Shown here piece by piece: positions 8,108-55,467 of a stretch of DNA of 59,243 nt. The position numbers and the translations under genes were made by a program. The DNA is from Minisyncoccota bacterium. Its GTDB lineage: Bacteria > Patescibacteriota > Minisyncoccia > UBA6257 > 1-14-0-10-40-38. The notes under the pieces are model-generated. The model saw nothing but the letters and a program-made list of their open reading frames with translations, was not told the DNA's origin and did no database searches. The DNA lies in contig SIBX01000001.1 in the NCBI GenBank assembly GCA_009694925.1, positions 1 to 59,243 of the forward strand, read 5' to 3'. The stretch's first letter is position 1, and every line of letters starts with the position of its first letter.

Positions 8108-8113
8108 TCTCAA

Positions 8114-8474
8114 TGTCGCTTAGGTGATTACGCAATACCTTAAAAATATTGTGAGGAAAGTCTGGACTCCTATCTCGCGAGAAATCGCGGGTAAACGTAC
8201 CGGTTAAAAGCCGGCTAAGTCAGAAAGTAATTTCTGGTTTAAGAGGTGCGAAAAGTGACGCCCAAAGACGAAAGAATTTGGGAGTCCGCTTGCGGACTAA
8301 TCTCTTCTATATTGAAGGAAGAGAGTGCAACGGCTAAATTCCTTACGAGGTGCAAGATCGTGCTCTAATTTAAAAGTTAGAGAGAATCGCTTGAGCTTGA
8401 AAGTAATTTCAGGCCTAGATAAATTATCATCATCCATTTGCAAGAATGGCACAGAATCCGGCTTATTAGCGACA
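8114..8474 (+). ncRNA. rnpB: RNase P RNA, bacterial type A
   Basis: GAGGAAAGTCTGGACTC (P4 5' strand, 8153-) and ACAGAATCCGGCTTAT (P4 3' strand, 8451-). P1 pairs tgtcgct (8114-8120) with agcgaca (8468-8474). A terminator follows. Confidence 0.9.
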
Positions 8475-8483
8475 AAAACAATA

Positions 8484-8516: not shown

Positions 8517-8603
8517 GACTATTAAGATTGCTTTTAAGCTAACTGTCCGTTACCATATTACACAGCTCTTGGGACCACACAGCTTCTCAAGCTGGAGAAA
8601 GTC

Positions 8604-8789
8604 TTGGTGGAAAGGGGAAGGCGTTTGGCTGTCGGTCTGTTTCGGATGGTGATCGGAGTCTTTTCAAAGGCTCCAGCGCATGAGGGAGAAGAGAGGACAA
8701 CGGCTCTCAGGGTCTGTCTCGTGGCAGCCCTCGGTACGGTCCTCATCATGTATTTCAGCGAGGGTGGGCACATGTTCCATCCGAACTGA
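8604..8789 (+). CDS. GC-rich orphan ORF, 61 aa, two hydrophobic segments (tentative)
   Basis: GGAG (8594-8597) lies 6 nt before TTG or 9 nt before GTG. Sequence MVERGRRLAVGLFRMVIGVFSK...ALRVCLVAALGTVLIMYF. A strong terminator starts 28 nt after the stop. Non-ATG start and weak promoter. Confidence 0.35.
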   Translation: MVERGRRLAVGLFRMVIGVFSKAPAHEGEERTTALRVCLVAALGTVLIMYFSEGGHMFHPN

Positions 8790-8816
8790 AGCACAAAATA
8801 ATCTCCGTCCACGCTT

Positions 8817-8857
8817 CGGCGCGTCTCACTTTGATAGTGGAACGCGCCGTTTTTTTT
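8817..8857 (+). terminator. intrinsic terminator closing island B1
   Basis: cggcgcgt-(17 nt)-acgcgccg, a perfect 8-bp stem followed by T8. Confidence 0.75.
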
Positions 8858-8859
8858 GT

Positions 8860-8917
8860 AAAAAAAGACCACCTTCGCTTGAATATTTTATATTAAGCTT
8901 GGGTGGTTTTTGGTCTT
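8860..8917 (-). terminator. terminator-like hairpin plus T7 after the 8930..9151 ORF
   Basis: Minus strand reads aagacc..ccacc..ggtgg tcttttttt. It converges on the plus-strand terminator at 8817-8857. Confidence 0.5.
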
Positions 8918-8929
8918 CGACAATAGTCA

Positions 8930-9151
8930 TTATTGAATACTGCCGGATTGAAAAAGTATCGCTTCTGGCCTCAGCTTGTCTGCTCTTTCTTTGCAGATTA
9001 CAGAGCAAAATGGCCTTTTGCATTTGCCGACATAATAGAGGCTGTCGACTGGGATTACTGCTTTACATTCAGTGCAATCGTGTCTGACTTTGGCCATATG
9101 ATGTTCTGGAACCAGATCATCGTCTTCGTATCCTCCAGCGCATCCGCACAT
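8930..9151 (-). CDS. GC-rich orphan micro-protein, 73 aa, FCS/TRASH-like zinc finger
   Basis: GGGAGGAA lies 8 nt upstream of the ATG. ...HDCTECKAVIPVDSLYYVGKCKRPFCSVICKE fits C-x2-C-x19-FCS-x2-C. Confidence 0.55.
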   Translation of the reverse strand: MCGCAGGYEDDDLVPEHHMAKVRHDCTECKAVIPVDSLYYVGKCKRPFCSVICKERADKLRPEAILFQSGSIQ

Positions 9152-9200
9152 CAGAGTTTCCTCCCATGTTTGTGACCGCCATAAGACCAGTGCTTTCTAT

Positions 9201-9230
9201 ATTATAATCTTGATTTAAGACATTTCGCAA
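9201..9230 (-). promoter_or_regulatory. predicted promoter for the 8930..9151 ORF
   Basis: Minus strand: TTGCGA (9230-9225), 18 nt spacer, TATAAT (9206-9201). Confidence 0.5.
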
Positions 9231-9248
9231 ACTGTTTTAAAAATGAAA

Positions 9249-9302
9249 GAGTCCGGTTCAGAATTTTATCTGATACCGGACTCCTGCCCCGCCGTAGCGG
9301 GG
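9249..9302 (-). terminator. tandem hairpins terminating the 9315..9530 ORF
   Basis: gagtccggt-(17 nt)-accggactc plus ccccgc-cgta-gcgggg. On the minus strand they are followed by tttcattttt. Confidence 0.6.
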
Positions 9303-9314
9303 ACTTATTCGCTT

Positions 9315-9530
9315 TCAGGCGGTGGCGACGGCGAGTTGACGCTCGTCGACCATCTCCGTGATCGTCGGAGCCGAGAAGCGCCGGATGAGATCCAGTCCGC
9401 CCGGCTTCCTGCCACCAGCCGCGATGATCATCTGCGCGATGAGCCCGCGAGTGGTCGGAGCACCCCGGAAAGTCCGGATCTCGCAACGGCACTCACCGCT
9501 CACCCTGCATGCCCTTGAGTCGCAAATCAT
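9315..9530 (-). CDS. GC-rich orphan micro-protein, 71 aa, N-terminal Cys cluster
   Basis: MICDSRACRVSGECRCEIRTF... (C-x4-C-x5-C-x-C). Weak SD GGGGAAAG 6 nt upstream. Consensus promoter and terminator hairpins flank it. Confidence 0.45.
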   Translation of the reverse strand: MICDSRACRVSGECRCEIRTFRGAPTTRGLIAQMIIAAGGRKPGGLDLIRRFSAPTITEMVDERQLAVATA

Positions 9531-9622
9531 TTCAGTCTTTCCCCGATTGCCATTCTAGCCTCGTGTTACCGAGCTAGAGGACTGTGAGTGAGTAGGGCCA
9601 ATCCCTTATCACTTACTTTATC

Positions 9623-9652
9623 ATTATATCATACGATACATCTATTTGTCAA
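9623..9652 (-). promoter_or_regulatory. near-consensus promoter of island C
   Basis: Minus strand: TTGACA (9652-9647), 18 nt spacer, TATAAT (9628-9623). Implies an approximately 85-nt GC-rich leader with hairpins before the ATG at 9530. Confidence 0.65.
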
Positions 9653-9666
9653 TATATAAAGCCTAT

Positions 9667-9717
9667 AATCCTTAAAAATAAGGGTTCTGTTGTAAAAATC
9701 CCTTATTTTTAAGGATT
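9667..9717. repeat. perfect 18-bp inverted repeat (hairpin or operator)
   Basis: aatccttaaaaataaggg-(15 nt)-cccttatttttaaggatt. It lies between the divergent island C promoter and the surface-protein promoter. Confidence 0.7.
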
Positions 9718-9845: not shown

Positions 9846-11867
9846 ATGTTCAAAAAAATTATACTTTTAAATATTGCAATTCTTTCGATATTTTTTATCG
9901 ACTTAAACCAAAACAAAACTCTGGCTTCTTTTCCTGGTTATTGTTCTAGCGAAATTATAATTTTTGCACAAGACATAGATGGAGTTACTCCCGGCAATAA
10001 CAATGATACGGCCATAGTAAATAATAGAAATGGAGCCCGCTTAGCAACAATTAATCAGGTAAGCGATGACTACATAGTTTTTCCGAATGATTATTATATT
10101 AAAGTTTATTCTGGAGAAAGAGCCGTTTACGCTGGAGCTCAAAAAGCCAATTTAACTTTCGAAATAGTAGATAATAATTACGCTCTTTTAAACAGCTATT
10201 CTTTCGGGGTTACAAATTCTAATAGAAAAGAGGTTCAAATTAATCAGGACGGCTACATTCATTTTATTAAAAATTTTAAATCGAATCAGTCTAGTTGGAT
10301 TATAATTTGTCCGAAATCAAACTCAAATCCACCACCAACTTCTAACGGCCAAATTACCTGGAGCCAAATTCCAACTCAATATGTAAATATTGGCAGTGTT
10401 TTGCAATTCAATATTTCGGCCAATAGTTCTATAGGAAAAACAATTTCTTATACTGCCGTTAATCTTGCCCAAGGAGCTTCTTTTGATTCAAATACAATGC
10501 AATTTTCTTGGACACCAACTCAATCTGGAACATATAGCGTAACTTTTAGGGCCAGTGACGGAATAAATTCAACAGACATGACAGTTTCCATAATTGTTAA
10601 TGGAACTACTGGAGGTGGCTGTTATTATAGTTGCAATAATAGTTGTGACTACAACAATAATTATAATTATTCAGGATCTTCTATCCTTGAGCAGTACGAT
10701 ATTTTCGGAATTTTTGGAAATTCAAACAATAATTCAAATTATGGCTGTAATAATAATTGTGGTTATTCTGGAAATTGTAATTATAACGACAATAACAACA
10801 ACGGTTCTTATTATCAGAATTATAATATCTACGCCCCAAATTGGAATATAATTCCAACTCAGACAGGATATGCTGGCCAGCTTTTAAGATTTGTTGTTTT
10901 TGCAACCAGCCAAAACAATTCAAATCTTTCTTATTCAGCCTTTAATCTTCCGTCTGGTGCATCTTTTGATTCCGTAACCAGAACTTTTTCTTGGGTTCCA
11001 GGATTCAATCAGATCGGAACATATCACGCTCTATTTAGGGTTACCGATGGATCTTCCGCTTCTCAAGATATGAACATAACCATAAATATTTTAAATAGTG
11101 GTCAAGCTGCTCCAAGTTTTACAGTTTTTGATCCTCCTCTTACTGGAGTTGAAAATCAATCTTGGACATATACGGCTCAGGCCGTTTCAAACGGCGGAGG
11201 TGGTGTTGTTTATAGATTATTAACCGCTCCAGCCGGCATGACCATTAGCCAAATAGCAGGAACAATTAATTGGATTCCAAATTCTTCTCAAGGAAGACCA
11301 AATCCATATTTAGTTACTGTTGGAGCTTCATCTGGATATGCCGAAGCCACTAGATCATTTTATTTAACCATAGCCGACACAGATGGAAATTATTCAATTC
11401 CATATATTCCTCCTTATCAAGGTTCTGGTTCTGGAATTATTCAAAAACCAAATATCAGCAATATAAATATAAATAATATTGATGGGGGAATAAGAATTTC
11501 TTGGAGCACGGATATTCCGGCCAAAGGAAGAGTTGTTTACGGAAGAGAATCTCAGGCCAATAAAGGGGAGCCATATTCATATTCTAACGCCACAAATTAT
11601 TCAGAAGTTAATAAAGATAATTCTGTAAATTTGACAGGTTTGGAAGATAATAAAACTTATTATTTGAGAATAGTTGCCGACGCCTCTGGCGCAGTTTCCA
11701 CGAGTCAAGAAATAAGTTATGTTTATTTAGCAGCCTCCGGCGCTGGTCTTGGATTTGCCTTAGCGTCTTTAGGTGCTCTTATTGCTAACGGTTGGTTTTG
11801 GCTTATAGCCATCCTAGCTATCGGAATCTTCTATGTTTATCCAAAATTCTCAAAAAAAACTGCTTAA
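9846..11867 (+). CDS. large cell-surface protein: signal peptide, three Ig-like (He_PIG-type) repeats, Asn/Tyr/Cys low-complexity linker, Fn3-like domain, C-terminal TM anchor
   Basis: Repeats ...YTAVNLAQGASFDSNTMQFSWTPTQSGTYSVTFRASDG / ...YSAFNLPSGASFDSVTRTFSWVPGFNQIGTYHALFRVTDG / ...YRLLTAPAGMTISQIAGTINWIPN. C-terminus GWFWLIAILAIGIFYVY. Confidence 0.8.
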   Translation: MFKKIILLNIAILSIFFIDLNQNKTLASFPGYCSSEIIIFAQDIDGVTPGNNNDTAIVNNRNGARLATINQVSDDYIVFPNDYYIKVYSGERAVYAGAQKANLTFEIVDNNYALLNSYSFGVTNSNRKEVQINQDGYIHFIKNFKSNQSSWIIICPKSNSNPPPTSNGQITWSQIPTQYVNIGSVLQFNISANSSIGKTISYTAVNLAQGASFDSNTMQFSWTPTQSGTYSVTFRASDGINSTDMTVSIIVNGTTGGGCYYSCNNSCDYNNNYNYSGSSILEQYDIFGIFGNSNNNSNYGCNNNCGYSGNCNYNDNNNNGSYYQNYNIYAPNWNIIPTQTGYAGQLLRFVVFATSQNNSNLSYSAFNLPSGASFDSVTRTFSWVPGFNQIGTYHALFRVTDGSSASQDMNITINILNSGQAAPSFTVFDPPLTGVENQSWTYTAQAVSNGGGGVVYRLLTAPAGMTISQIAGTINWIPNSSQGRPNPYLVTVGASSGYAEATRSFYLTIADTDGNYSIPYIPPYQGSGSGIIQKPNISNININNIDGGIRISWSTDIPAKGRVVYGRESQANKGEPYSYSNATNYSEVNKDNSVNLTGLEDNKTYYLRIVADASGAVSTSQEISYVYLAASGAGLGFALASLGALIANGWFWLIAILAIGIFYVYPKFSKKTA

Positions 11868-12068: not shown

Positions 12069-12584
12069 ATGAAGGCCTTGATGTTGGTTCTGGCGGTGCT
12101 CCTCGTGGGAGCCTCGGCAGGAGCTGTCTCTTCGGCAACGTCGGCGGAACCGACCACTCTGAAGATGGTCGATCCGTTCGTCTCGGCGACCGTCACGGTG
12201 AACGGCGTCGTGGTGGAGGTGGAGTTCGTGGATCTCTCCACGGGCCTCACGCTCACGACGACGAATCCGGCTCTCGTCGCGATGGCTAGCGATTACGTGA
12301 GCGATCCGGATACGTCATCTGCACGCTTCACCAAGGATGTCAGCGACGGCAACGGGGGCAAGAAGAAGGTCGAGATGACCATCACGGTCACCAAGCGATC
12401 CGAAGAGTCCGGCAAGGAATTCCTCAGGCGCTTCGAGAAGCGTTGCGAGGACGCCATCTCTTCTGGTTGGGAGCCCGTCGTCACGCCGACGTCGAACGTC
12501 TACGACTCGAACCGGCCGGTCCTCGACGTCGTCCATCTCTACGACAGGGACGACCCGCCTTCGGACATCGGCAACGCTGTCTGA
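12069..12584 (+). CDS. GC-rich orphan secreted protein (171 aa)
   Basis: GAAGGAA lies 8 nt upstream of the ATG. Signal peptide MKALMLVLAVLLVGASAGAVSSATSA. Codons overwhelmingly end in G/C. A strong terminator follows directly. Confidence 0.7.
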   Translation: MKALMLVLAVLLVGASAGAVSSATSAEPTTLKMVDPFVSATVTVNGVVVEVEFVDLSTGLTLTTTNPALVAMASDYVSDPDTSSARFTKDVSDGNGGKKKVEMTITVTKRSEESGKEFLRRFEKRCEDAISSGWEPVVTPTSNVYDSNRPVLDVVHLYDRDDPPSDIGNAV

Positions 12585-17561: not shown

Positions 17562-17617
17562 TATGTTCTATGCGTCAAAAGGTGGCGCAAAGACAGACTT
17601 TGGTTTGGGAGATAGAA

Positions 17618-17872
17618 ATGTCTGGAAGGAAGAAGGCGGTTGGTCCAGTTGAGTCTGGGGAGACACAAGAAAAAGTCCGCAAGATCAGTTCGTGTAGGCT
17701 TTGTGAGGGAACCGGCAAGGTTCCTCTCCGTTGCGGTGGCAAGTCTGAATGTGCTTGCACTTCTTCGACTAACAAGTCGAAGCGCGCTGCACTCAATCCG
17801 AGACACCTTTCTCTGACTACTCGTGGGGCGAACTTTCACGCCCTGCAACGCGAACGTAGCCACCCGTCCTGA
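17618..17872 (+). CDS. GC-rich orphan micro-protein, 84 aa, CxxCxGxG Cys cluster
   Basis: GGGAGA lies 5 nt upstream of the ATG. ...KISSCRLCEGTGKVPLRCGGKSECACTSS. An alternative in-frame ATG at 17570 sits right at the predicted TSS (leaderless option). Confidence 0.5.
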   Translation: MSGRKKAVGPVESGETQEKVRKISSCRLCEGTGKVPLRCGGKSECACTSSTNKSKRAALNPRHLSLTTRGANFHALQRERSHPS

Positions 17873-18387: not shown

Positions 18388-19683
18388 ATGCTAGATATCA
18401 AATTTATAAAAGAAAACGCTGATTTAGTCCAAAAAGTCAGCGAAGAAAAAGGCTATAAGGTAGACGTCTCTGAAACTTTAAAGCTTTATGGTGAACAGAA
18501 TTCAATTTTGCAAAAAATAGAAAGCCTAAGAAAAGAAAGAAATGAGCTTTCCGCATTATCAAAAAATTCTAAGCCCACAGAAGAGCATATTAAGCGCGGC
18601 AAAGAAATTAAATTAGAAATTACACACCTAGAAGAATCTTTTAAAAAAGCAGAAGACGATTTTTTAGTTTCAGTTAAAAAAATTCCCAATATTTATTCCG
18701 AAGATGTTCCAAAGGGAAAATCTGAAAATGAAAATGTTGTAGTTAAAACAGTTGGCGAAATCCCAAAATTTAAATTTACCCCTAAGAATCATTGGCAATT
18801 GGGCGAAGCTAAGCATTGGATTGATAAGGAAAGGGCCACTAAAGTTGCCGGCGCGCGCTTTGCTTATCTAATGGGTGATTTTGTGAGATTAGAATGGGCC
18901 CTAATGCGTTTTGCTATGGATATTTTAACCGATGAAAAAATATTAAAGAAAATAATCAAAGCTAATAATTTAAAAGTTTCTTCGAAAGTCTTTATTCCAG
19001 TTCTTCCTCCATATATGATCAAAACCGAACAGTATGATGCTATGGATAGGCTTGAACCAAGAGAAGAAAGATATAAAATCGAAGGTGAAGATCTTTGGCT
19101 CCAAGGATCTGCTGAGCACGTTTTGGGCAGTATGCATTCTGAGGAAATTTTTAACGAAGCAGATCTTCCTTTAAGATATGTTGGTTTTGCCACCTCTTTT
19201 AGAAAAGAGGCTGGAAGTTATGGAAAAGATATGGAGGGCATCATCCGTCTCCACCAGTTTAATAAAATGGAGTTAGAAAGTTTTTCCGTAAAAGAAAACG
19301 GTATGCAGGAACATTTATTCTTTGTGGCTATTCAGGAATATTTAATGAAAGCGTTAGAGCTTCCTTATAGAGTGGTTATGAAGTGCACCGCCGATATCGG
19401 CAAACCTAACGCCAGAGGTATTGATATAGATGTCTGGCTTCCAGGACAAAATAAATATCGCGAGACTCACACGGCTGACTATATGACCGATTATCAGGCC
19501 CGCCGTTTAAAGACACGCGTCAGGAGAGCCGATAATTCAGTTGAATTAATCCATACCAACGACGCCACCGCGCTTTCCGAAAGGCCCCTTATAGCCATCT
19601 TAGAAAATAATCAAAGAGAAGACGGAACAATAGAAATTCCAAAAGTTTTGCGACCGTACATGCTTAAGAAAAAATTTATTTAA
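18388..19683 (+). CDS. serS: seryl-tRNA synthetase
   Basis: N-terminal coiled-coil arm MLDIKFIKEN...; FRKEAGSYGKD and RLHQFNK class II motifs. Confidence 0.93.
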   Translation: MLDIKFIKENADLVQKVSEEKGYKVDVSETLKLYGEQNSILQKIESLRKERNELSALSKNSKPTEEHIKRGKEIKLEITHLEESFKKAEDDFLVSVKKIPNIYSEDVPKGKSENENVVVKTVGEIPKFKFTPKNHWQLGEAKHWIDKERATKVAGARFAYLMGDFVRLEWALMRFAMDILTDEKILKKIIKANNLKVSSKVFIPVLPPYMIKTEQYDAMDRLEPREERYKIEGEDLWLQGSAEHVLGSMHSEEIFNEADLPLRYVGFATSFRKEAGSYGKDMEGIIRLHQFNKMELESFSVKENGMQEHLFFVAIQEYLMKALELPYRVVMKCTADIGKPNARGIDIDVWLPGQNKYRETHTADYMTDYQARRLKTRVRRADNSVELIHTNDATALSERPLIAILENNQREDGTIEIPKVLRPYMLKKKFI

Positions 19684-19687
19684 ATTT

Positions 19688-19725
19688 AAAGCGTCCAGCT
19701 GGGCTCTCCCATCTGGACGCTTTTT
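19688..19725. terminator. bidirectional terminator between serS and the island F ORF
   Basis: aaa-gcgtccag-(14 nt)-ctggacgc-ttttt. Confidence 0.8.
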
Positions 19726-19734
19726 GTATCAACA

Positions 19735-19923
19735 TCACGAACCTCCAGCCTTCTTTTTAGGAGAACCATCTCGGAAGATAAAGAACCAAAAAAGAAATAC
19801 AACGACGGGCAACAACACAGCGCAAGTAGATAGAATGTGTTCGCTATCAAAGCGGTGAAGAACGTCAGTCGCAAAGCCCATCCAGCTGCCCGGAATTGGA
19901 CACTTACTCTCCTCCTGTGGCAT
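19735..19923 (-). CDS. GC-rich orphan small membrane protein, 62 aa (C-terminal TM helix plus basic tail)
   Basis: AAGGTGGA lies 3-4 nt upstream of the ATG. MPQEESKCPIPGSWMGFATDVLHRF...CAVLLPVVVFLFWFFIFRDGSPKKKAGGS. Confidence 0.5.
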   Translation of the reverse strand: MPQEESKCPIPGSWMGFATDVLHRFDSEHILSTCAVLLPVVVFLFWFFIFRDGSPKKKAGGS

Positions 19924-20011
19924 TTTCCACCTTTTCCTTTTCTATTTGCCAATCGGTCTGTGTGCTGTTTTTCAGTCTACGACAATATTTCAAATTATTA
20001 AAGTCTTAGAT

Positions 20012-20266
20012 AAAAAAAGAACCCGGGGCCACACTGGTTGTGTGACTACCCGGGCGCAGAACAGCCCCATTCCCTAACTTTACAAGAGATTGCGATCTTA
20101 CCTAGGATCATCATCGCAGGCGTGGATTGTCGAAAAGACCAATCTGAGCGCACTTAGGGAGACTCCGAACATAACCAGACTGAAGTTCGATCTAGTTGCA
20201 GCGTCTTGTTGCCGGCAAGGAGTCTTTTCCCCTTATATCTAGCAAAGACCAGAGGGAACTTTCTGC
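20012..20266 (-). ncRNA. ORF-less GC-rich structured RNA, about 250 nt (independent sRNA or terminator-ending leader of the 62-aa ORF)
   Basis: Its promoter is at 20273-20300. Helices 20160-20166/20219-20225 and 20091-20096/20113-20118. Minus-strand terminator cccggg..cacac-aacca-gtgtg..cccggg followed by T7 (20012-20056). No ORF of 60 aa or more. Confidence 0.5.
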
Positions 20267-20272
20267 CCGTTT

Positions 20273-20300
20273 ATAATATCACAACTTTTAAAAGTTACAA
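20273..20300 (-). promoter_or_regulatory. predicted promoter of the island F RNA
   Basis: Minus strand: TTGTAA, 16 nt spacer, TATTAT. The -35 lies in a near-palindrome shared with the divergent ddl promoter. Confidence 0.5.
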
Positions 20301-20324
20301 ACTATGTCATTTTATGGTTAATAT
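20295..20324 (+). promoter_or_regulatory. predicted ddl promoter, leaderless geometry
   Basis: TTACAA, 18 nt spacer, TAATAT, then only 5 nt to ATG 20330. No SD. Confidence 0.45.
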
Positions 20325-20329
20325 ATTCA

Positions 20330-21490: not shown

Positions 21491-22009
21491 CTAGCTCGCG
21501 CGCTTCTCCGATCGGGTCGAGGGGATTTTCCCGACTCGACGCAGTTCCTTGATGGCGCTCTTGCGAACCATGAGCGGCGCCCTGGATCGATCCAGTCGAT
21601 CGAGCTCCGCTATGGTCCGGCAAACCGAACCCAAGAGCAGTTTTTCGACTCCCTGGAGGCGAAGCTTCTCGGCTTCTGCATCTGCGAGCTTCACCCTTGT
21701 CTCCGCCAATATTGCCCTGTCATCCTCCAGTCGCCGGATGATTCCGACAATGTGCACGATCTGCTCTTCGGTCGGCGGACCCTGGAGAAGACCGAGAGTC
21801 GTCTGGACCTCGCCAGCCAAGCTCTCGTCGGTCTGCTCGAACTCCGGATCTTTGAAAACCGGAATTCTTGTGACCGTAACCTGTTCCGGGGTCAAAGAGA
21901 TTTGAACATTTCTCACGGTTCTCTCCCATTGTTCCGGCTTCATCCCAAATAGGGAATCAGCTTGGTTGTTCTGTTTTTGGTGCCGAGATAACTCCCAGCT
22001 ACCTTCCAT
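21491..22009 (-). CDS. GC-rich orphan protein (172 aa as listed; true start uncertain)
   Basis: A long ORF spans the whole island with a helical/coiled-coil-like C-terminal half (RLEDDRAILAETRVKLADAEAEKLRLQGVEKLL). The listed ATG 22009 is only 1 nt from the -10 box, so Met23 (21943) may be the real start. Confidence 0.55.
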   Translation of the reverse strand: MEGSWELSRHQKQNNQADSLFGMKPEQWERTVRNVQISLTPEQVTVTRIPVFKDPEFEQTDESLAGEVQTTLGLLQGPPTEEQIVHIVGIIRRLEDDRAILAETRVKLADAEAEKLRLQGVEKLLLGSVCRTIAELDRLDRSRAPLMVRKSAIKELRRVGKIPSTRSEKRAS

Positions 22010-24502: not shown

Positions 24503-24504
24503 TA

Positions 24505-24533
24505 TTGACTTAAAATATTTATATTGTTAAGGT
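24505..24533 (+). promoter_or_regulatory. predicted promoter of the island H RNA (extended -10)
   Basis: TTGACT, 17 nt spacer ending in TGt, then TAAGGT. Confidence 0.55.
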
Positions 24534-24539
24534 TTTAGA

Positions 24540-24830
24540 GAAGTAAGTCGAGAAGTCGCAAGTCAGCTTTTGGACGCTAAGCTTTCCTTCTTTGCCAGCA
24601 TCCAAAAGTCCGCAAATGGGCTCTTCTTCGCACAAGAGTTGAATTTCTCGTTTCATTCGGTCTCTCAATCCTCGGGCGACCACTGGCTAACCGACTAGAC
24701 CCGGTAAGCCGATACGGTGAGCAATCTCTGGGACAATGTAAGAGTTAATGAACCAGGGAGCGAGAAAAATTGTGCTTCTAGGCTTATCGGCTTCGGGTTG
24801 AGGCAACTCCTCCGCCCGAAGCCTCTTTAA
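24540..24830 (+). ncRNA. ORF-less GC-rich structured RNA, about 290 nt (sRNA or leader upstream of ychF)
   Basis: Helix 24567-24574/24601-24608. Terminator ggcttcggg-(17 nt)-cccgaagcc followed by tcttt (24789-24830). 24706-24714 can pair with 24785-24793, which overlaps the terminator 5' arm. Confidence 0.5.
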
Positions 24831-33508: not shown

Positions 33509-34234
33509 ATGGCGAACTTCGCATTGAGCAAGACCTTTCAGATGATCGTTGACTACGATCTTCGACCGGGAGAGCTGATTGCTTATTCCGGTGTCCAGGA
33601 AGTCGCCAATTGGCAAGAGATGGATAGCGCGTTCTATCATCTCGCCAACGACCGCAGCAAGTTCCCTTGCGGGAACGAGCACCTGGTCCGGTATGAGGCG
33701 CGTGTGAGCACTCGCCAACCCTTCGTCAGCGGAGACGAGAGGCAGGTTCTGGTTGATGCGGCTATCGTTACGTTGAACGAGCCGATCAACGAGCGCCGAG
33801 ATCCTCCACGGGAGAGCGATGACCTCCACGACTTCGTCCAAGAAGTCGAGCGGATGGGCTATCGCCAAGCCAACTTCCGAGAAGTTCTAACTCTCGGCAG
33901 CGTGGCACTTCTTCCCGAGGAGCTTCTGACGCCCTTCGCCTTGATTGGTAGCAGTTTCCATGTTGACTGGAAACTGTCCAGGCAGGTGTTGGGCGAGAGC
34001 TGGGGAGGGAAGTTTCCGCTCCTGGCTCTTGGCGCTGGATGGGTCGACTGCACTGGAGGAGAAGTTGTCACTCCCTGCTTCGAGTTCGTCCGTGGCCGTC
34101 GCGCTCTGTCGTTCCAGGAGTACTTGTGGTGCGGTGTTGAGATCAGCACCAGGTACCGCATCCTCGTTATCAAGAGGACAGACGGACCCGCGACGATTGT
34201 GGCCAACCCACTTCCTCGCGACCGGAGTGTCTAA
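33509..34234 (+). CDS. GC-rich orphan protein (241 aa)
   Basis: AAGGAG lies 9 nt upstream of the ATG. The ORF spans the island with G/C-ending codons. Hairpins follow the stop. No family recognised by eye. Confidence 0.7.
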   Translation: MANFALSKTFQMIVDYDLRPGELIAYSGVQEVANWQEMDSAFYHLANDRSKFPCGNEHLVRYEARVSTRQPFVSGDERQVLVDAAIVTLNEPINERRDPPRESDDLHDFVQEVERMGYRQANFREVLTLGSVALLPEELLTPFALIGSSFHVDWKLSRQVLGESWGGKFPLLALGAGWVDCTGGEVVTPCFEFVRGRRALSFQEYLWCGVEISTRYRILVIKRTDGPATIVANPLPRDRSV

Positions 34235-45173: not shown

Positions 45174-46307
45174 ATGTCTAAGATTAGAATAATTTTGACT
45201 GGAGGTGGAAGCGGAGGGCACATGATGCCTCTTTTGGCCGTCGGTGAAGAGGTTTGGAAATATGCAGACGAACAAAAGAAAGAAGTAAAAATGAAATATT
45301 TTGGCGATCCATTAGGATATAGGGATGAATTTTTGATTCGCCGTATTCCAATTTCAAAAATAGCCTCCGCCAAAATAAGAAGGTATTTTGATTTAAGAAA
45401 TCTACTAGATATATTTAAGTTCTTTTTTAGTTTGTTTCAATCTTTTTGGAAAGTTTACTTATTTATGCCCAATGTCTGTTTTTCGAAGGGTGGCCCAGGA
45501 GCTATTTCGGTTATTCTAGCGTGTAGATTCTATAGGATTCCCGTGATTATTCATGAATCTGATTCCATTCCAAGTATGACAACAAAAATATCTTGTGGTT
45601 TTGCTAAGTCAATAGAAGTAGCCTTTTCCTCTATTAAAGATTATTTCCCCGGATGGAATAATATTAAAATTGTCGGCAATCCCGTAAGAAAAATAATTAC
45701 TCGCATAATAGGTGCAAGAGAAGCTAAGCAATTTTTTGGATTCAATCCAGACCTTCCAGTTATATTTTTTGCTGGTGGCTCTCAAGGATCAAACCATATA
45801 AATGACTTTGTTTTAGTAAACCTGAAAAAGTTTTTACAAAAATATCAAATTCTTCATCAAGTTGGAGTTGAAAATATAAATAGCTATAAAGCCGAATACG
45901 AGGTTATGTCGAGAGACTTGCTTCCAGAATTAAAATCAAAATATAAATTCTTTGCTTTTTTTAAAAGCGAAATAGCAGAAAGCTATCAATGTGCCGATGT
46001 TTTCGTCGGTCGCGCTGGAGCAGGACAAATTTTTGAAATAGCCTCTCTAAAAATTCCTAGTATTTTAATTCCTCTCCCTGATTCGGCCAATAATCATCAA
46101 TTCGAAAATGCCATTAAGTACGAAGAATCAGGAGCTTCTCTTACCATAGAACAAGACAATTTAATTCCAGAAGTCTTAATTAACGAAGTTGATAGTATTT
46201 TAAGTAATCCACTAAAAATGAAGCAAATGGAAGATTCTGCCGAAAAATTCTATATTCCAAACTCCGCCAGACTAATAGTTGAAGATATTTTTAGTTTAAT
46301 TAAATAA
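45174..46307 (+). CDS. murG: UDP-N-acetylglucosamine--N-acetylmuramyl-(pentapeptide) pyrophosphoryl-undecaprenol GlcNAc transferase
   Basis: LTGGGSGGHMMP, GGSQGS, RAGAGQIFE, NHQFENA. Confidence 0.9.
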   Translation: MSKIRIILTGGGSGGHMMPLLAVGEEVWKYADEQKKEVKMKYFGDPLGYRDEFLIRRIPISKIASAKIRRYFDLRNLLDIFKFFFSLFQSFWKVYLFMPNVCFSKGGPGAISVILACRFYRIPVIIHESDSIPSMTTKISCGFAKSIEVAFSSIKDYFPGWNNIKIVGNPVRKIITRIIGAREAKQFFGFNPDLPVIFFAGGSQGSNHINDFVLVNLKKFLQKYQILHQVGVENINSYKAEYEVMSRDLLPELKSKYKFFAFFKSEIAESYQCADVFVGRAGAGQIFEIASLKIPSILIPLPDSANNHQFENAIKYEESGASLTIEQDNLIPEVLINEVDSILSNPLKMKQMEDSAEKFYIPNSARLIVEDIFSLIK

Positions 46308-46309
46308 AG

Positions 46310-46375
46310 CCCGTAGTAAGAATTCGGCAAATAAAAATTACTCGCCAAAGGCGAGTAATTGAATTTCACTGCGGG
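46310..46375. repeat. hairpin repeat E3 (GTAGT-hairpin family) at the left edge of island K
   Basis: cccgtagtaagaattc-...attactcgcc-aaa-ggcgagtaat...-gaatttcactgcggg. Starts 3 nt after the murG stop. Confidence 0.6.
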
Positions 46376-46377
46376 AT

Positions 46378-46826
46378 AAAAAAACGGCTCCGAGAGAAGT
46401 GCATGCGACTGTGTCGCAATTACAACCCCCGGAGCCTTACTCGACAACCCTTTCTTCACCTATTGGGGATTCCTATCAGCCTGGTTCGAAACCCTAGCTG
46501 ATCTGATGCCGCCATTGCCCAAAAACGCGGGCGTTCGGTGAACAGGTACGAGAGACTGCTGATCTCAGCCAATTCTCGACGAGCGGGTTATGAGAGCGGG
46601 GATGGTGGCTTGGTTTCAGCCAAGCCGGGGTCCTTTTCCTCAAACGTGACAACCCCCCACTAAGTCGAGAAAAACCGATCGCAATCTCTGTGTCCCTTTC
46701 TGGAGTTGTTTACCCCATAGGAGAAACCTGAGCCAGGCTTGCTTTTTACGAACAGATACACTGGCTTTCTCTGTTCGTTACCGCACTTTTACTCTAGTTG
46801 AGATCACGGCAACTCTCAACCATTAC
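46378..46826 (-). ncRNA. large ORF-less GC-rich structured RNA candidate, about 450 nt
   Basis: A consensus promoter lies at 46833-46861. Terminator ggctccg-(37 nt)-cggagcc followed by g, T7 on the minus strand (46378-46436). Helices 46573-46580/46664-46671, 46607-46613/46620-46626, 46750-46755/46771-46776 and 46797-46803/46814-46820. No internal ORF of 60 aa or more; the only listed ORF touching the interval (46250..46459, minus) merely enters its terminator end from outside. Confidence 0.55.
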
Positions 46827-46832
46827 TCTTCC

Positions 46833-46861
46833 AGTATAGCATACCTAATTTTTATTGTCAA
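46833..46861 (-). promoter_or_regulatory. near-consensus promoter of the island K RNA
   Basis: Minus strand: TTGACA (46861-46856), 17 nt spacer, TATACT (46838-46833). Confidence 0.65.
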
Positions 46862-46900
46862 TAGATATTGTGGAAAACTGCTAAAAACCCAATGAAATAA

Positions 46901-46967
46901 ACCCAGTAGTAGAAATTAGACAGTTGACTCTGTCGCCCTGCGACAAGTCTAATTTTCACTACTGGGT
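46901..46967. repeat. hairpin repeat E2 (GTAGT-hairpin family) at the right edge of island K
   Basis: acccagtagtagaaattagac-(25 nt with gtcgc-cct-gcgac)-gtctaattttcactactgggt. It is the reverse-orientation homologue of E1 and carries compensatory stem changes. Confidence 0.7.
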
Positions 46968-46979
46968 AAGCATTTTCAA

Positions 46980-47008
46980 TTGAAAATTATTCTCTAAAGT
47001 GATACTAT
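46980..47008 (+). promoter_or_regulatory. predicted gltX promoter (extended -10), leaderless geometry
   Basis: TTGAAA, 17 nt spacer ending in TGa, TACTAT, then 8 nt to ATG 47017. No SD. Confidence 0.55.
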
Positions 47009-47016
47009 TAACCCCA

Positions 47017-48489
47017 ATGCCACCTAAAGAATCCAAAGAAATAAGGGTTCGCATAGCTCCCAGCCCAACTGGCTTCTTTCACTTTGGAACAGCTAGAACT
47101 GCTCTTTTTAACTATCTTTTCGCCAAAAAACACAATGGCAAGTTTATAGTGAGAATCGAGGACACAGACAGAGAACGTTCAAAGCCAGAGTATGAAAAAG
47201 ACATCTTGGATGGCCTAAGATGGCTTGGACTTAATTCAGACGAAGATCCAATAGTCGGAGGAAGCCATGGGCCATATCGCCAAAGCGAGAGATTAGATAT
47301 GTATGAAAAATATTTAAAACAGCTTTTAAGCGAAAATAAGGCCTATTATTGCTTTTGTGCATCAGAAGATTTAGAAATGGAAAGAAAAGTAATGATGGAG
47401 TCGGGCATTGCTCCTAAATATTCTGGAAAATGCAGAAGCATTTCCCATAAAGAAGCTGAAGGTAAAATTGAAAAAGGAGAAGCTTCCATAATTCGTTTTA
47501 AAATGCCCGAAGAAAAAATCCGCTTCAATGATTTAATTAAAGGTAAAATTGAAATGGACTTATCTCTATTTGGCGATCAAGTTATAGCAAAAAATCTTCG
47601 TGAACCACTTTATAATTTCGCCGTTGTGGTTGACGATGAAGAAATGAAAATTTCTGATGTAATTCGAGGAGAAGATCATCTTCCTAATACTCCAAAACAA
47701 ATTCCCATACAAAAAGCCCTAGGATTTAAAGAAGTGGCCTATGCCCACCTTCCTTTAATTTTAAATCCAGACAGAAGCAAAATGTCTAAAAGATTTTTAG
47801 ATGTTTCAGTAAAAGATTATAAAGATAAAGGATATTTACCTTCTGCCATGGTGAACTTCATGGCCTTAATCGGTTGGCATCCAGAAGCCAAGTCTGGAGA
47901 ATCAGAAAAAGAAATTTTTACCATAAAAGAATTGATTTCAGAATTTAGTTTAGAAAGAGTTCAAAAAGGGGGAGGAATTTTCAGCGAAGAGAAATTAGAT
48001 TGGATAAATTCTCAATTTATTAAAAACATGGAAGATGTCCATCTTTTAGAAGAATTAAAATTAAGAGGGGATGTTGAAGAAAGCTCTTTAAGCAAAGAGT
48101 CTGTGCTTAAAATTATAAAAAGCACCAAGGAAAGAATGAAAAACTTAAGCGAATTTAAAAATTTGGCTCATTTTTTCTTTAAACTTCCACAATATGATAA
48201 AAATCTTTTAATTTGGAAAAAATCCAACTTAGCCGGAGCGGTTATTGCCCTAAATGAATCTGTAGCGATATTAGAATCTATTAGTCCAGAAAATTTTAAA
48301 AAAGAAGTTATAGAAAAAGAGTTAAACCAATTTGGAGAAAAAATAGGCAAGGGAGATCTCTACTGGCCCGTCAGGGTTGCTTTATCTGGAAGAGAATTTT
48401 CCCCGCCACCACAAGAAATAATGGATATATTGGGTAAAGATGAGTCCATAAAGAGGGTCAAATCTGCTATAGAAAATCTAGAAAAATAA
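47017..48489 (+). CDS. gltX: glutamyl-tRNA synthetase
   Basis: RIAPSPTGFFHFGTAR (HIGH region) and KMSKR (KMSKS). ATG 47017 preferred. Confidence 0.92.
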   Translation: MPPKESKEIRVRIAPSPTGFFHFGTARTALFNYLFAKKHNGKFIVRIEDTDRERSKPEYEKDILDGLRWLGLNSDEDPIVGGSHGPYRQSERLDMYEKYLKQLLSENKAYYCFCASEDLEMERKVMMESGIAPKYSGKCRSISHKEAEGKIEKGEASIIRFKMPEEKIRFNDLIKGKIEMDLSLFGDQVIAKNLREPLYNFAVVVDDEEMKISDVIRGEDHLPNTPKQIPIQKALGFKEVAYAHLPLILNPDRSKMSKRFLDVSVKDYKDKGYLPSAMVNFMALIGWHPEAKSGESEKEIFTIKELISEFSLERVQKGGGIFSEEKLDWINSQFIKNMEDVHLLEELKLRGDVEESSLSKESVLKIIKSTKERMKNLSEFKNLAHFFFKLPQYDKNLLIWKKSNLAGAVIALNESVAILESISPENFKKEVIEKELNQFGEKIGKGDLYWPVRVALSGREFSPPPQEIMDILGKDESIKRVKSAIENLEK

Positions 48490-50722: not shown

Positions 50723-50872
50723 TTTTTTATTTAAAATAAATCACAAAAGGGTATTAATAGTATAAAAAACAAGAAATCATATTTAGTTAATTAAAGTAGC
50801 TTATCTGTCGCAAAAGGTATATTGTGCGACATGTGATAGGTATTGTTCCCCGTAGAATAAGCGTAGCTTTCC

Positions 50873-51078
50873 AAAAATTAAAAAAGCCCTCCTTACCTCT
50901 TTCGAGCGTAGAATTGGGGCTCCTTCTGATCAGTGTTTCCAGTTGTTGGCAACTTGGTTTCCGAATTGGGTCGCCATAAAGTTTTTAAATCCTTCATACG
51001 CTTCCTTTTCTTACCTCAGAGCCCTAACAACGGCCTCATGCTTGTCGGGACTCTAATCAACTACTTTTCTCGTAGACT
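50873..51078 (-). ncRNA. GC-rich transcript, about 205 nt, downstream of the ABC transporter gene (sRNA, 3' UTR or micro-ORF mRNA)
   Basis: Predicted promoter at 51085-51113. Minus-strand hairpin agcccc..ctc-gaaa-gag..agggct followed by T-rich tail (50873-50921). No ORF of 60 aa or more. Confidence 0.4.
50893..50997 (-). CDS. possible 34-aa micro-ORF in island L
   Basis: AAGGAAG lies 3 nt upstream of the ATG. MKDLKTLWRPNSETKLPTTGNTDQKEPQFYARKR. The stop lies inside the terminator stem. Very tentative. Confidence 0.2.
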   Translation of the reverse strand: MKDLKTLWRPNSETKLPTTGNTDQKEPQFYARKR

Positions 51079-51084
51079 CTTGGT

Positions 51085-51113
51085 TTTATATTTAACATTG
51101 CTCCTTTAGTAAA
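51085..51113 (-). promoter_or_regulatory. predicted promoter of the island L transcript
   Basis: Minus strand: TTTACT, 17 nt spacer, TATAAA. Confidence 0.4.
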
Positions 51114-51143
51114 TATTTTTCTGGTTGATAAAATATTTATTTT

Positions 51144-53826: not shown

Positions 53827-53904
53827 TAGAATTCAGAATTAAGAATTTAGGTTTTTTTAACCCCATTCTCTCCTAAATTCTGCATTCTATATTCTATCCA
53901 TAAA

Positions 53905-54195
53905 TATTTCTCCCCTCGACAAGCAATGCTTGGAGCGAGGGGGCAAGGAAAGGCTCGGAGACTAGTCGGCGGAAGAGAGACCGCTGTGGGGCGATGGCGG
54001 CGAAACGGGGAATGCCCATACAGAGTTCATCATCCGTCTACCAGTCTCCGAGCACAGAATTTCAAAGAACAGGAGTGGGAGATGAACTTGCGCCATAGCT
54101 AGCCCGTGCCCACGGTAACCATGGCATGCCTACGTGCTTCTCTCATCTCAGGAGGATTCTTTGCGTGCCCACTCGTCTCCCGCTCCTGTTCGTGC
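53905..54195 (+). ncRNA. ORF-less GC-rich structured RNA candidate, about 290 nt (strand tentative)
   Basis: Helices 53912-53918/53936-53942, 53954-53963/54043-54052 (10 bp) and 54067-54082/54176-54191 (16 bp). Three G-T pairs are tolerated only on the plus strand versus one on the minus. No clear promoter or T-run. Confidence 0.4.
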
Positions 54196-54292
54196 TGAAT
54201 TAATAATAGCATATTGATTTTTATAAAAAATAAAAAAAGTGGATAAGTATTATAATAATTATTCCAACTGATATCCTGCGGATAAGTTTATT

Positions 54293-54514
54293 AAAAAAAG
54301 AAACCGTCCGATGATATGCGCGTAGCGCATTCATGGACGGTGGTTCGGTTAAGAATGGGAGGGAGAACTTGCAAAATTGTTTCTCTGTGATTCGGAGCAG
54401 GTTTCCGTGTTGACTACAAACCTTGAGTTGCCTCATGATCTGTGTTCTTTCGGTAATTATGCGCCCTCTCACTAGAGTTATCTCTCGCAATCCCCCCCCC
54501 TCCCAGTATTAGCT
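54293..54514 (-). ncRNA. GC-rich structured RNA candidate, about 220 nt, starting with a GGGAG9 tract
   Basis: Promoter at 54521-54549. Minus-strand terminator accgtcc-(25 nt)-ggacggt followed by ttc, T7 (54293-54341). The G-rich 5' end pairs with ctccctccc (54357-54363/54498-54504). Confidence 0.5.
54492..54500. repeat. C9/G9 homopolymer tract
   Basis: Nine consecutive C on the plus strand, about 14-22 nt downstream of the predicted minus-strand TSS. Confidence 0.9.
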
Positions 54515-54520
54515 GTAGAA

Positions 54521-54549
54521 ATTATAATCCCATTTTTTAAAATATGCAA
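54521..54549 (-). promoter_or_regulatory. near-consensus promoter of the 54293..54514 RNA
   Basis: Minus strand: TTGCAT (54549-54544), 17 nt spacer, TATAAT (54526-54521). Confidence 0.6.
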
Positions 54550-54619
54550 AACAAATTAACCCTCCTTATATTGTAAGAGGTAAGTCAATATGTTAATTTA
54601 TTAAGGTATATTTAAAAAA

Positions 54620-54693
54620 TGGGGAATCGTCTAATGGTAGGACAGAGGCCTTTGAAGCCTTTAATTGGGGTTCGAATCCCTGTTCCCCAGCCA
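54620..54693 (+). tRNA. tRNA-Gln (anticodon TTG), CCA encoded
   Basis: Hand-folded cloverleaf: tggggaa/ttcccca acceptor stem, gtct/ggac D stem, gaggc-cTTTGaa-gcctt anticodon arm, tgggg-ttcgaat-ccctg T arm, and discriminator g plus cca. Confidence 0.93.
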
Positions 54694-54711
54694 AGTTTCA
54701 GAATTCGTTTT

Positions 54712-54876
54712 TTATCTACTGACTTTAAGTCCAAAATAAATTCCAGCTAATCCGCCCAGCGTTGAAAAAATAATAGACGTGAGTGAAAGTAAATCCCCTC
54801 CCCAGATAGCTGGCACAAAACTTCCAATCATAGAGCCAACAACCATCCCAAACATAATAATAGATTTAGAACTCAT
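54712..54876 (-). CDS. small membrane protein (54 aa, Gly-zipper-like)
   Basis: Under 60 aa, so absent from the track. MSSKSIIMFGMVVGSMIGSFVPAIWGGDLLSLTSIIFSTLGGLAGIYFGLKVSR has two hydrophobic helices and host-like composition. Confidence 0.5.
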   Translation of the reverse strand: MSSKSIIMFGMVVGSMIGSFVPAIWGGDLLSLTSIIFSTLGGLAGIYFGLKVSR

Positions 54877-54909
54877 CTTTTTATTATATTCTAATGCTAG
54901 AATTAAGTT

Positions 54910-55161
54910 ATGCCCTATTTCGTCTATATACTAGAGTGCTCTGATAAATCCCTATATACTGGCATAACTAATAATTTAGAAAAAAGAATTAAAAACCATA
55001 ACGAATCTAAAGTAGGAGCAAGGTATACAAAAGCTAGAAGACCGGTAGTTCTAAGATGCTTCGAAAAAGTAAAAACCAAAAGTCTAGCTCTTAAAAGAGA
55101 AATCGAGATCAAGTCTTGGACGAGAGAAAAGAAATTAAACCTAATAAGAAATATTTCTTAA
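54910..55161 (+). CDS. GIY-YIG nuclease superfamily protein (83 aa, stand-alone)
   Basis: YFVYILECSDKSLYTGITNNLEKRIKNHN...ARYTKARRP...LKREIEIK. Confidence 0.8.
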   Translation: MPYFVYILECSDKSLYTGITNNLEKRIKNHNESKVGARYTKARRPVVLRCFEKVKTKSLALKREIEIKSWTREKKLNLIRNIS

Positions 55162-55320
55162 AATTTCACACCTTGACGAAATTGTGATACATTGTTTATA
55201 AATGAGAAAACCAGTTTTTAGGGCATTATTAATACTTATTCTATTTATTATAATGGTAATATTATTTTATCTATTCTCTCTTTCTGTTTTTTTTGATGGC
55301 CTTTTAAAATTATAACCAAT

Positions 55321-55455
55321 ATGGAAGAAGGGCCAATATACCCAATACGCATTAATAAATATTTAGCGCTAAAACAGCACTCAACTCGCCGTGGAGCAGA
55401 TGAGCTTATTTCTCGTATAAATGGCGGTTTTGAATTACTAATTTTTAAAGTTTAA
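55321..55455 (+). pseudogene. truncated duplicate of the S4-domain N-terminus of the 57550..58257 pseudouridine synthase
   Basis: MEEGPIYPIRINKYLALKQHSTRRGADELISR... versus MQDKPLYPMRINKYLALKQYSTRRGADELIST... The promoter-like ttaaaatttc..cttgacgaaa.tgtgataca.tgttt is also duplicated (55158-55197 versus 57507-57547). Confidence 0.6.
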
Positions 55456-55467
55456 ATAATAATATAT

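Follow-up and report, generated by a model that had tools for sequence, protein, structure and literature searches.

For the contig analysed here (locus-tag prefix EXS49), of which the whole stretch of 59,243 nt is referred to as the window, the genes murG (protein accession MST03984.1) and gltX stand next to one another on the plus strand, separated by a spacer of 690 nt. The minus strand of this spacer holds a unit, termed K, of about 448 nt, with a G+C content of 51–52% against 35.1% for the contig. An earlier reading of the sequence alone had singled out K as a large, highly paired RNA of about 55% G+C (an overestimate, given the measured value), set between a consensus promoter and a terminator and bracketed by hairpin repeats. 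The coordinates of these and other features of the window are collected in Table 1.

Both transcription signals were borne out. The minus-strand promoter, read earlier as TTGACA-17-TATACT, is of the sigma-70 type, agrees with the consensus at 11 of 12 positions and carries the extended TG in addition. Sites scoring at least 11/12 number six in the whole window, against 3.5 expected from shuffles, and four of the six border on a GC-rich island. Transcription of K would be expected to start near 46826. The terminator, previously placed at 46378–46436 as a hairpin followed by T7, is a compound hairpin of −32.6 kcal/mol (z −6.63, with none of 200 shuffles as stable), whose outer stem of 11 bp has a pair probability of 0.97. 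Promoter and terminator are placed exactly at the two borders of the GC-rich block formed by K.

Table 1. Positions of features at the murG–gltX junction and elsewhere in the window
Feature	Position	Strand	Description
murG	45174–46307	+	Pfam assignment; stop codon 46305–46307
Segment missing in closest relatives	46308–46986		E3, K, E2 and spacer, between murG and gltX
Hairpin repeat E3	46310–46375		directly after murG stop, just past K terminator; −30.2 kcal/mol, z −6.4
K intrinsic terminator	46379–46436	−	compound hairpin 46436–46386, then U7 at 46385–46379
K body (predicted RNA)	46437–46826	−	about 390 nt, 51% G+C, series of hairpins
K promoter, sigma-70-type	46833–46861	−	TTGACA 46861–46856, 17-nt spacer, extended TG, TATACT 46838–46833
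Hairpin repeat E2	46901–46967		direct orientation to E3; −33.4 kcal/mol, z −7.5
Probable gltX promoter	46980–47008	+	TTGAAA-17-TG-TACTAT; divergent from K
gltX	47017–48489	+	Pfam assignment
Hairpin repeat E1	28818–28885	other strand, inverted	just upstream of two ORF-less GC-rich units
ORF-less unit after E1	28913–29025	+	terminator
ORF-less unit after E1	29085–29385	+	300 nt; terminator
RNase P RNA, bacterial class A	8112–8480	+	full-length model match
GC-rich single gene	8520–9620	−	
GC-rich single gene	12069–12584	+	signal peptide
GC-rich single gene	17570–17872	+	
GC-rich single gene	21491–22009	−	
GC-rich single gene	33049–33240	+	
GC-rich single gene	33509–34234	+	241-aa protein

Coding potential and predicted fold of K

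According to the ORF lists, K contains no ORF of at least 60 aa, and a 69-aa frame on the minus strand (46250–46459) enters it through the terminator only; the sequence-only reading had said as much, and it was equally right that the longest ATG ORF has 19 aa, SD-like stretches being found before TTG codons only. It went too far in calling the lack of ORFs notable: for 450 nt at 51% G+C such a lack is unremarkable, and the missing three-nucleotide periodicity is the better argument. Period-3 power is 0.22 for K, with a peak of 1.66 among its 120-nt sub-windows; murG and gltX reach 8.2 and 12.1, respectively, and three GC-rich protein genes of the window 5.0–15.5. Each of the six frames of K contains 3–7 stops. 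Protein searches yielded little: a six-frame translation matched nothing in Pfam, a six-frame concatenate found nothing at E≤10 among 5.8 billion proteins, exact look-ups of the ORFs of K returned nothing, and phmmer with its 71-codon open stretch against 1.84 billion representatives gave two marginal low-complexity matches only. The marks of a protein-coding gene or a recent pseudogene (ORF, periodicity, homologues) were all missing from K. Since it has neither an ORF of at least 60 aa nor codon periodicity, K is most likely a stand-alone non-coding transcription unit and, to judge from its sequence, very probably an independent one on the minus strand. An alternative genetic code was considered and rejected: frame 2 of the plus strand has TGA stops only, yet it shows no periodicity and an un-protein-like composition, and TGA is used as a stop in the rest of the genome.

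It could be argued that K is instead an mRNA that encodes a very small protein, or several, flanked by long and structured untranslated regions. Candidate micro-ORFs can be found, namely a near-leaderless one of 9 aa at 46823, one of 33 aa with a GTG start at 46761, and one of 49 aa with a TTG start at 46643, the last preceded by a GGGGGG stretch. The island with a minus-strand promoter at 9652 appears to encode two Cys-rich micro-proteins with good SD sites and likewise shows little periodicity at island scale, and the core genes of this genome are without SD sites, so that a missing SD does not exclude translation of K. However, no ATG ORF of K exceeds 19 aa, the SD-preceded TTG starts are buried in predicted helices or in the terminator, the peptides are basic and of low complexity as is typical of chance frames in GC-rich RNA, and database matches are confined to marginal similarities with long repetitive proteins. 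We therefore regard a micro-protein mRNA as distinctly improbable.

The fold predicted for K comprises hairpins at 46822–46795 and 46778–46748 in the MFE structure, a long imperfect arm (46692–46548) with an apical GGCUUGG/CCAAGCC hairpin and an unpaired C-rich stretch of about 20 nt, and a 3' domain (46547–46449). The four helices named beforehand (46573–46580/46664–46671, 46607–46613/46620–46626, 46750–46755/46771–46776 and 46797–46803/46814–46820) are all present in the MFE structure, with probabilities of 0.83–1.00. The description of K as highly paired is overstated: including its terminator K has a folding z of −5.1, but the body without the terminator reaches −3.1 (minus strand) and −2.3 (plus strand), about equal on the two, which falls within the range of three GC-rich coding islands folded in the same way (−0.8, −3.4 and −3.9). 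Segments of murG and gltX gave −0.8 and −2.4, the RNase P RNA −4.95 and the ORF-less island at 29085–29385 −6.7. In stability the body of K does not surpass the GC-rich coding DNA of its genome, and being highly paired is consequently not evidence of function here.

Turnover at the murG–gltX junction

Adjacency of murG and gltX is ancestral in this clade, and the gap between the two genes varies widely in length and content. For the relatives L091–L093, whose MurG is 93% identical and whose core genes are about 85% identical at the nucleotide level, the gap measures 199 nt and holds an unrelated hairpin and a canonical terminator; for L001 (MurG 84%) it is 72 nt and empty; and for L082–L084 (MurG 62%) it spans 876 nt and holds an unrelated cassette of 49% G+C on the plus strand, with promoter, SD, a 207-aa membrane protein of no known family and terminator. 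Gaps of 13, 101, 1865 and 85 nt separate the two genes in L002, L004, L003 and L005, respectively, with MurG identities of 44%, 41%, 39% and 35%. L001 is collinear with the window up to 46308 and again from 46987, the −10 region of the gltX promoter being the first part to re-align, whilst in L091 collinearity likewise extends up to 46308 but resumes at 47017. Nhmmer detected K neither in the loci just listed nor in the other 70-odd gltX loci. As K is absent at the junction of every relative compared, it represents a lineage-specific insertion at a hypervariable junction, and by parsimony it was gained in the lineage of the window after the split from that of L091. It should be borne in mind that the lineage is very sparsely sampled, only three other genomes having a MurG at least 83% identical.

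Two observations on the variability of such junctions can be added. The hairpin in the murG–gltX gap of L091 (gap at 11136–11334) has a two-stem architecture like that of the repeats beside K and an unrelated sequence, CCCGAG..GTGATCGTGC...GCACGATTAC..CTCGGG, after which the canonical terminator follows. A second hypervariable junction lies downstream of a FemAB-family gene (window 50723–51143), where the contents differ between relatives and are GC-rich: a region of 1.8 kb in L001 (9985–11760), two genes without relatives in L091 (15242–16532), and a gene without relatives together with a PD-(D/E)XK exonuclease in L082 (15862–17827).

Bracketing of K by the repeats E3 and E2 was confirmed. 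These two hairpins of about 70 nt share an internal mismatch, TAAA/TAA flanks and the outer arms (GTAGTARRAAT ... TTTCACTRC); E1 is a third copy with the same outer arms, and the inner tips of the three are mutually unrelated. The consensus pattern matches three times in the window, against 0.00 expected, and all three hairpins are stable (−30 to −33 kcal/mol, z −6.4 to −7.8) and adjoin ORF-less GC-rich units. The related loci contained none of them, and viral contigs none that is a true hairpin. E2 sits between the divergent promoters of K (46861, minus) and gltX (46980, plus). A similar layout recurs at 9652 (minus), hairpin 9667–9717 and 9744 (plus): in both cases a long, perfect or near-perfect hairpin separates two strong, divergent promoters, one belonging to a GC-rich island and the other to a core gene.

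The arrangement invites comparison with mobile cassettes. It resembles integron cassettes and CALINs in that a short cargo (593 nt from repeat to repeat) is enclosed by imperfect palindromes in the same orientation, whose outer arms are conserved while the centres vary, and the content of the site differs between relatives; one could suppose that E3, K and E2 make up an integron-like or MITE-driven cassette in which the hairpins are attC-type recombination sites and K the cargo. The conserved internal mismatch and the TAAA...TAA(A/G) flanks would suit such a cassette, as would the position of E1 beside ORF-less GC-rich units and the behaviour of the junction as an insertion hot spot. However, inspection of motifs found no attC cores (RYYYAAC / GTTRRRY) in the arms; no integrase or transposase was seen near K in the ORF lists or in the Pfam annotation, which there covered murG and gltX; the copies are only three, all in this genome and none in relatives or viral contigs; and, unlike a typical array, the locus holds a single cassette, with a non-coding cargo that has its own strong promoter and terminator. 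The E hairpins also resemble MITE, REP and Correia repeats, being of about 70 nt, in three copies per 59 kb, with inverted arms that are conserved at the termini, perhaps with duplications of TAA(A), and lying in intergenic positions beside promoters and terminators; they differ from MITEs in that their centres are unrelated among the three copies, and we know of no parent transposon. Given the unrelated look-alike that L091 carries at the same place, the E hairpins may simply be fast-evolving terminators or insulators. They are read here as insulator- or terminator-like elements, or as MITE-like repeats tied to cassettes; that they serve recombination is conceivable but finds no support, and an integron-like or MITE-driven cassette is in our estimation very improbable.

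Known RNA families and searches for homologues

Membership of K in a known RNA family was assessed with cmscan against Rfam 15 (4227 families), at gathering thresholds and then with lax filters at E≤10, the permissive scans being run on 901 nt and on K alone (458 nt). At gathering thresholds tRNA-Gln was the only match in the window, and K had none; K alone, with the laxest filters at E≤10, gave nothing beyond chance matches of the miRNA hairpin type, and the OLE, ROOL, GOLLD, HEARO, raiA and 6S models did not match it at that level. No family was thus recovered by the all-Rfam scan that had been proposed as a check.

Several specific identities were discarded. Firstly, a tmRNA, whether standard or permuted, was contradicted by ARAGORN, which reported tRNA-Gln only in the window, and by all Rfam tmRNA models, which were negative on K at E≤10; the string GGUUUCGAACC forms a 4-bp palindrome within a longer hairpin and makes no T-arm, as the sequence-only reading had concluded. 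Secondly, RNase P had been suggested by strings noticed by eye (GGUAACG...ACAGAGA, and AGCCUGG/CCAGGCU as a possible P4), but K is unmatched by the model and shows no blastn similarity to the true RNase P RNA of the window, whose location elsewhere removes RNase P as an identity for K. Thirdly, a T-box or other cis-leader of gltX is at odds with the promoter and terminator of K, which lie on the opposite strand, and no T-box matched either strand; gltX keeps its own promoter, separate from K.

The RNase P RNA, of bacterial class A, scored 83.1 bits (E 1e-23). It is divergent and falls below the Rfam gathering score of 100, so that default Rfam annotation would miss it. Its detection by permissive scanning shows that such searches work in this lineage.

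Homologues of K were sought more widely. Nhmmer against 80 gltX loci and further relatives found no copy, and blastn against phage and plasmid collections found no match. Viral contigs and metagenomes were covered by exact-pattern scans: five segments of K returned zero or chance matches in viral contigs, and the unpaired C-rich 20-mer returned four chance matches in metagenomes, on contigs of 48–61% G+C and with no flanking similarity. A covariance model was also built from the single sequence of the long arm (R1); run on the window with filters off, it found only generic hairpins at E≥0.3, and it found nothing in 17 Patescibacteria loci. No homologue of K turned up in any collection searched, let alone a set with covarying pairs of the sort that mark a structured RNA, and without homologues conserved helices, covariation and purifying selection are not demonstrable. 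Antisense targets within the 59-kb window did not exceed shuffled expectation, and the duplex energies of the C-rich loop with gene start regions merely tracked G+C content. Literature on GC-rich islands or ncRNAs in CPR bacteria held nothing pertinent.

Screens of GC-rich intergenic regions in AT-rich genomes by the Breaker laboratory find large ornate RNAs (PMC6429828, PMC11109978), and K bears the same signature as OLE, ROOL, GOLLD, HEARO and raiA in being a long, GC-enriched, ORF-free intergenic region of an AT-rich genome. Its size of about 450 nt, its strong promoter and terminator and its several helices of high pair probability are also what one would expect if K belonged to a conserved class of large structured RNA, either ornate in the manner of OLE, ROOL or GOLLD or a divergent tmRNA, RNase P or 6S RNA. 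Ornate RNAs, however, are defined by many covarying homologues, and K has no homologues, covariance-model matches or copies in its nearest relatives. The empty Rfam and ARAGORN results speak against such a class, all the more as the same permissive search that detects the RNase P RNA does not detect K; K is missing at the junction in relatives whose MurG is 93%, 84% and 62% identical, nhmmer found no copy elsewhere in the 6–20 kb available per relative, and the z of the body is not above that of coding controls. A housekeeping or broadly conserved RNA would not show this pattern of presence and absence, and the comparison across relatives decides against that reading. For known families it is largely refuted, and a conserved class in general is barely credible. 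The earlier suggestion that K belongs with large ornate or housekeeping RNAs accordingly did not hold; of the two findings that would have turned the sequence-only reading in another direction, a confident tmRNA or housekeeping match did not appear in Rfam or ARAGORN, and homologues with a conserved reading frame did not appear either, since no homologues were found at all.

K among the GC-rich islands of the contig

Several islands of the contig are GC-rich single genes (53–62% G+C; Table 1). Each is preceded by a consensus promoter and a good ribosome-binding site and closed by a terminator; the core genes, by contrast, have no ribosome-binding sites. Several small Cys-rich ORFs or micro-proteins are also found among the islands. 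For the 241-aa protein no relative turned up among 5.8 billion proteins, and the cassette proteins match nothing in Pfam, PHROGs or NCBIfam except for the PD-(D/E)XK exonuclease of L082. The notion that all GC-rich islands are giant ncRNAs was rejected, because several bear features of genes, namely ATG starts, ribosome-binding sites, strong codon periodicity and signal peptides. In its layout of promoter and terminator and in its atypical G+C content K resembles the GC-rich units, but it has no ORF.

Other stretches of the contig deserve mention in their own right. The longer of the two ORF-less units that come right after E1 is closed by a long helix (GUCGGGGGGUGCAGAU/AUCUGCACCUCCCCGAC) and has no Rfam match; with the strongest z measured in the window, it is a better structured-RNA candidate than K. 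An ORF-poor island beside tRNA-Gln is, unlike K, partly conserved in L091, at 74–86% nucleotide identity, and a small-protein cassette at 33.0 kb is 73% identical there, below the core genes. The conserved pieces lie at 54192–54374 and 33027–33174 of the window and at 19629–19847 and 6–156 of L091, and these islands could serve for tests of covariation or dN/dS. Further stretches of raised G+C without ORFs of at least 100 aa occur at 19684–20329, 24503–24868 and 53827–55467, and the non-coding fraction of the contig is unusually high for a Patescibacteria genome.

With GC-rich orphan protein genes of the same promoter and terminator layout as neighbours, K might be a decayed or truncated coding cassette of this kind, or some other non-functional insert, in which promoter and terminator work and the RNA has no role. 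Rapid turnover of the junction, the lack of homologues and of any detectable target, and a fold stability no better than that of GC-rich coding sequence would all be compatible with a remnant, and the intact promoter and terminator could equally reflect recent arrival rather than function. Yet no 120-nt sub-window of K is periodic, whereas frameshifted genes retain local periodicity; every one of the six frames is interrupted by stops; and promoter (11/12 plus TG) and terminator are undamaged. That the six-frame translation matches nothing in Pfam or in 5.8 billion proteins is a weak argument against a remnant, because intact cassettes are equally orphan. We consider a non-functional insert unlikely, though to be taken seriously.

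The reading that we favour, at a probability of roughly 55%, is that K is a recently acquired, stand-alone non-coding transcription unit whose RNA is accessory and acts in trans. Under such a model, which takes in transcription, exact ends and any activity of the RNA as predictions from sequence, the near-consensus extended −10 promoter would drive an RNA of about 448 nt and 51% G+C opposite to the strand of murG and gltX, and the strong intrinsic terminator would halt transcription before it could run antisense into murG, whilst the hairpin repeats on both sides may insulate the unit from its neighbours. K itself is a recent insertion into a hypervariable junction of an uncultured Paceibacteria (CPR) genome and the non-coding member of a flexible pool of GC-rich single-gene units that mostly encode ORFan proteins, and its RNA might work through base pairing or by binding protein, much as island-encoded sRNAs do. 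An accessory, trans-acting role seems most likely, rather than a conserved catalytic or housekeeping one.

Salmonella Isr RNAs are island-encoded sRNAs of 80–300 nt that reside on horizontally acquired islands. K is like them in its independent promoter, Rho-independent terminator and lack of an ORF, and in its location in strain-variable DNA between core genes that is absent from close relatives; it is unlike them in being much longer, at about 450 nt, and in having a G+C content above rather than below that of the host genome. To our knowledge, no island-encoded sRNAs of the Isr kind have been characterised in Patescibacteria, which do not grow in pure culture and whose regulatory RNA repertoire is, so far as we are aware, essentially unknown.

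By itself a single orphan such as K settles no open question, and it is best regarded as a legitimate ncRNA candidate of modest interest. If K were expressed and functional, it would be among the first accessory, strain-specific long ncRNAs to be described in Patescibacteria (CPR). A bolder proposal, that K founds a new kind of large accessory RNA, carried in hairpin-bounded single-gene cassettes alongside GC-rich ORFan genes that have ribosome-binding sites, and shuffled into fixed hot spots of Paceibacteria, is a long shot; were it true, it would imply an uncharacterised system of cassette exchange in ultra-small episymbiotic bacteria, with a cargo that includes functional RNAs. As K is currently an orphan, the surrounding pattern is the more promising lead. 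In the loci compared, the murG–gltX and post-FemAB junctions are hot spots whose GC-rich unit differs from one relative to the next, is equipped with a promoter of its own and has no relatives outside, and these units are protein-coding in some genomes and RNA-like in the window. This pattern bears on how streamlined symbiont genomes gain novelty, and is a more useful result than K alone.
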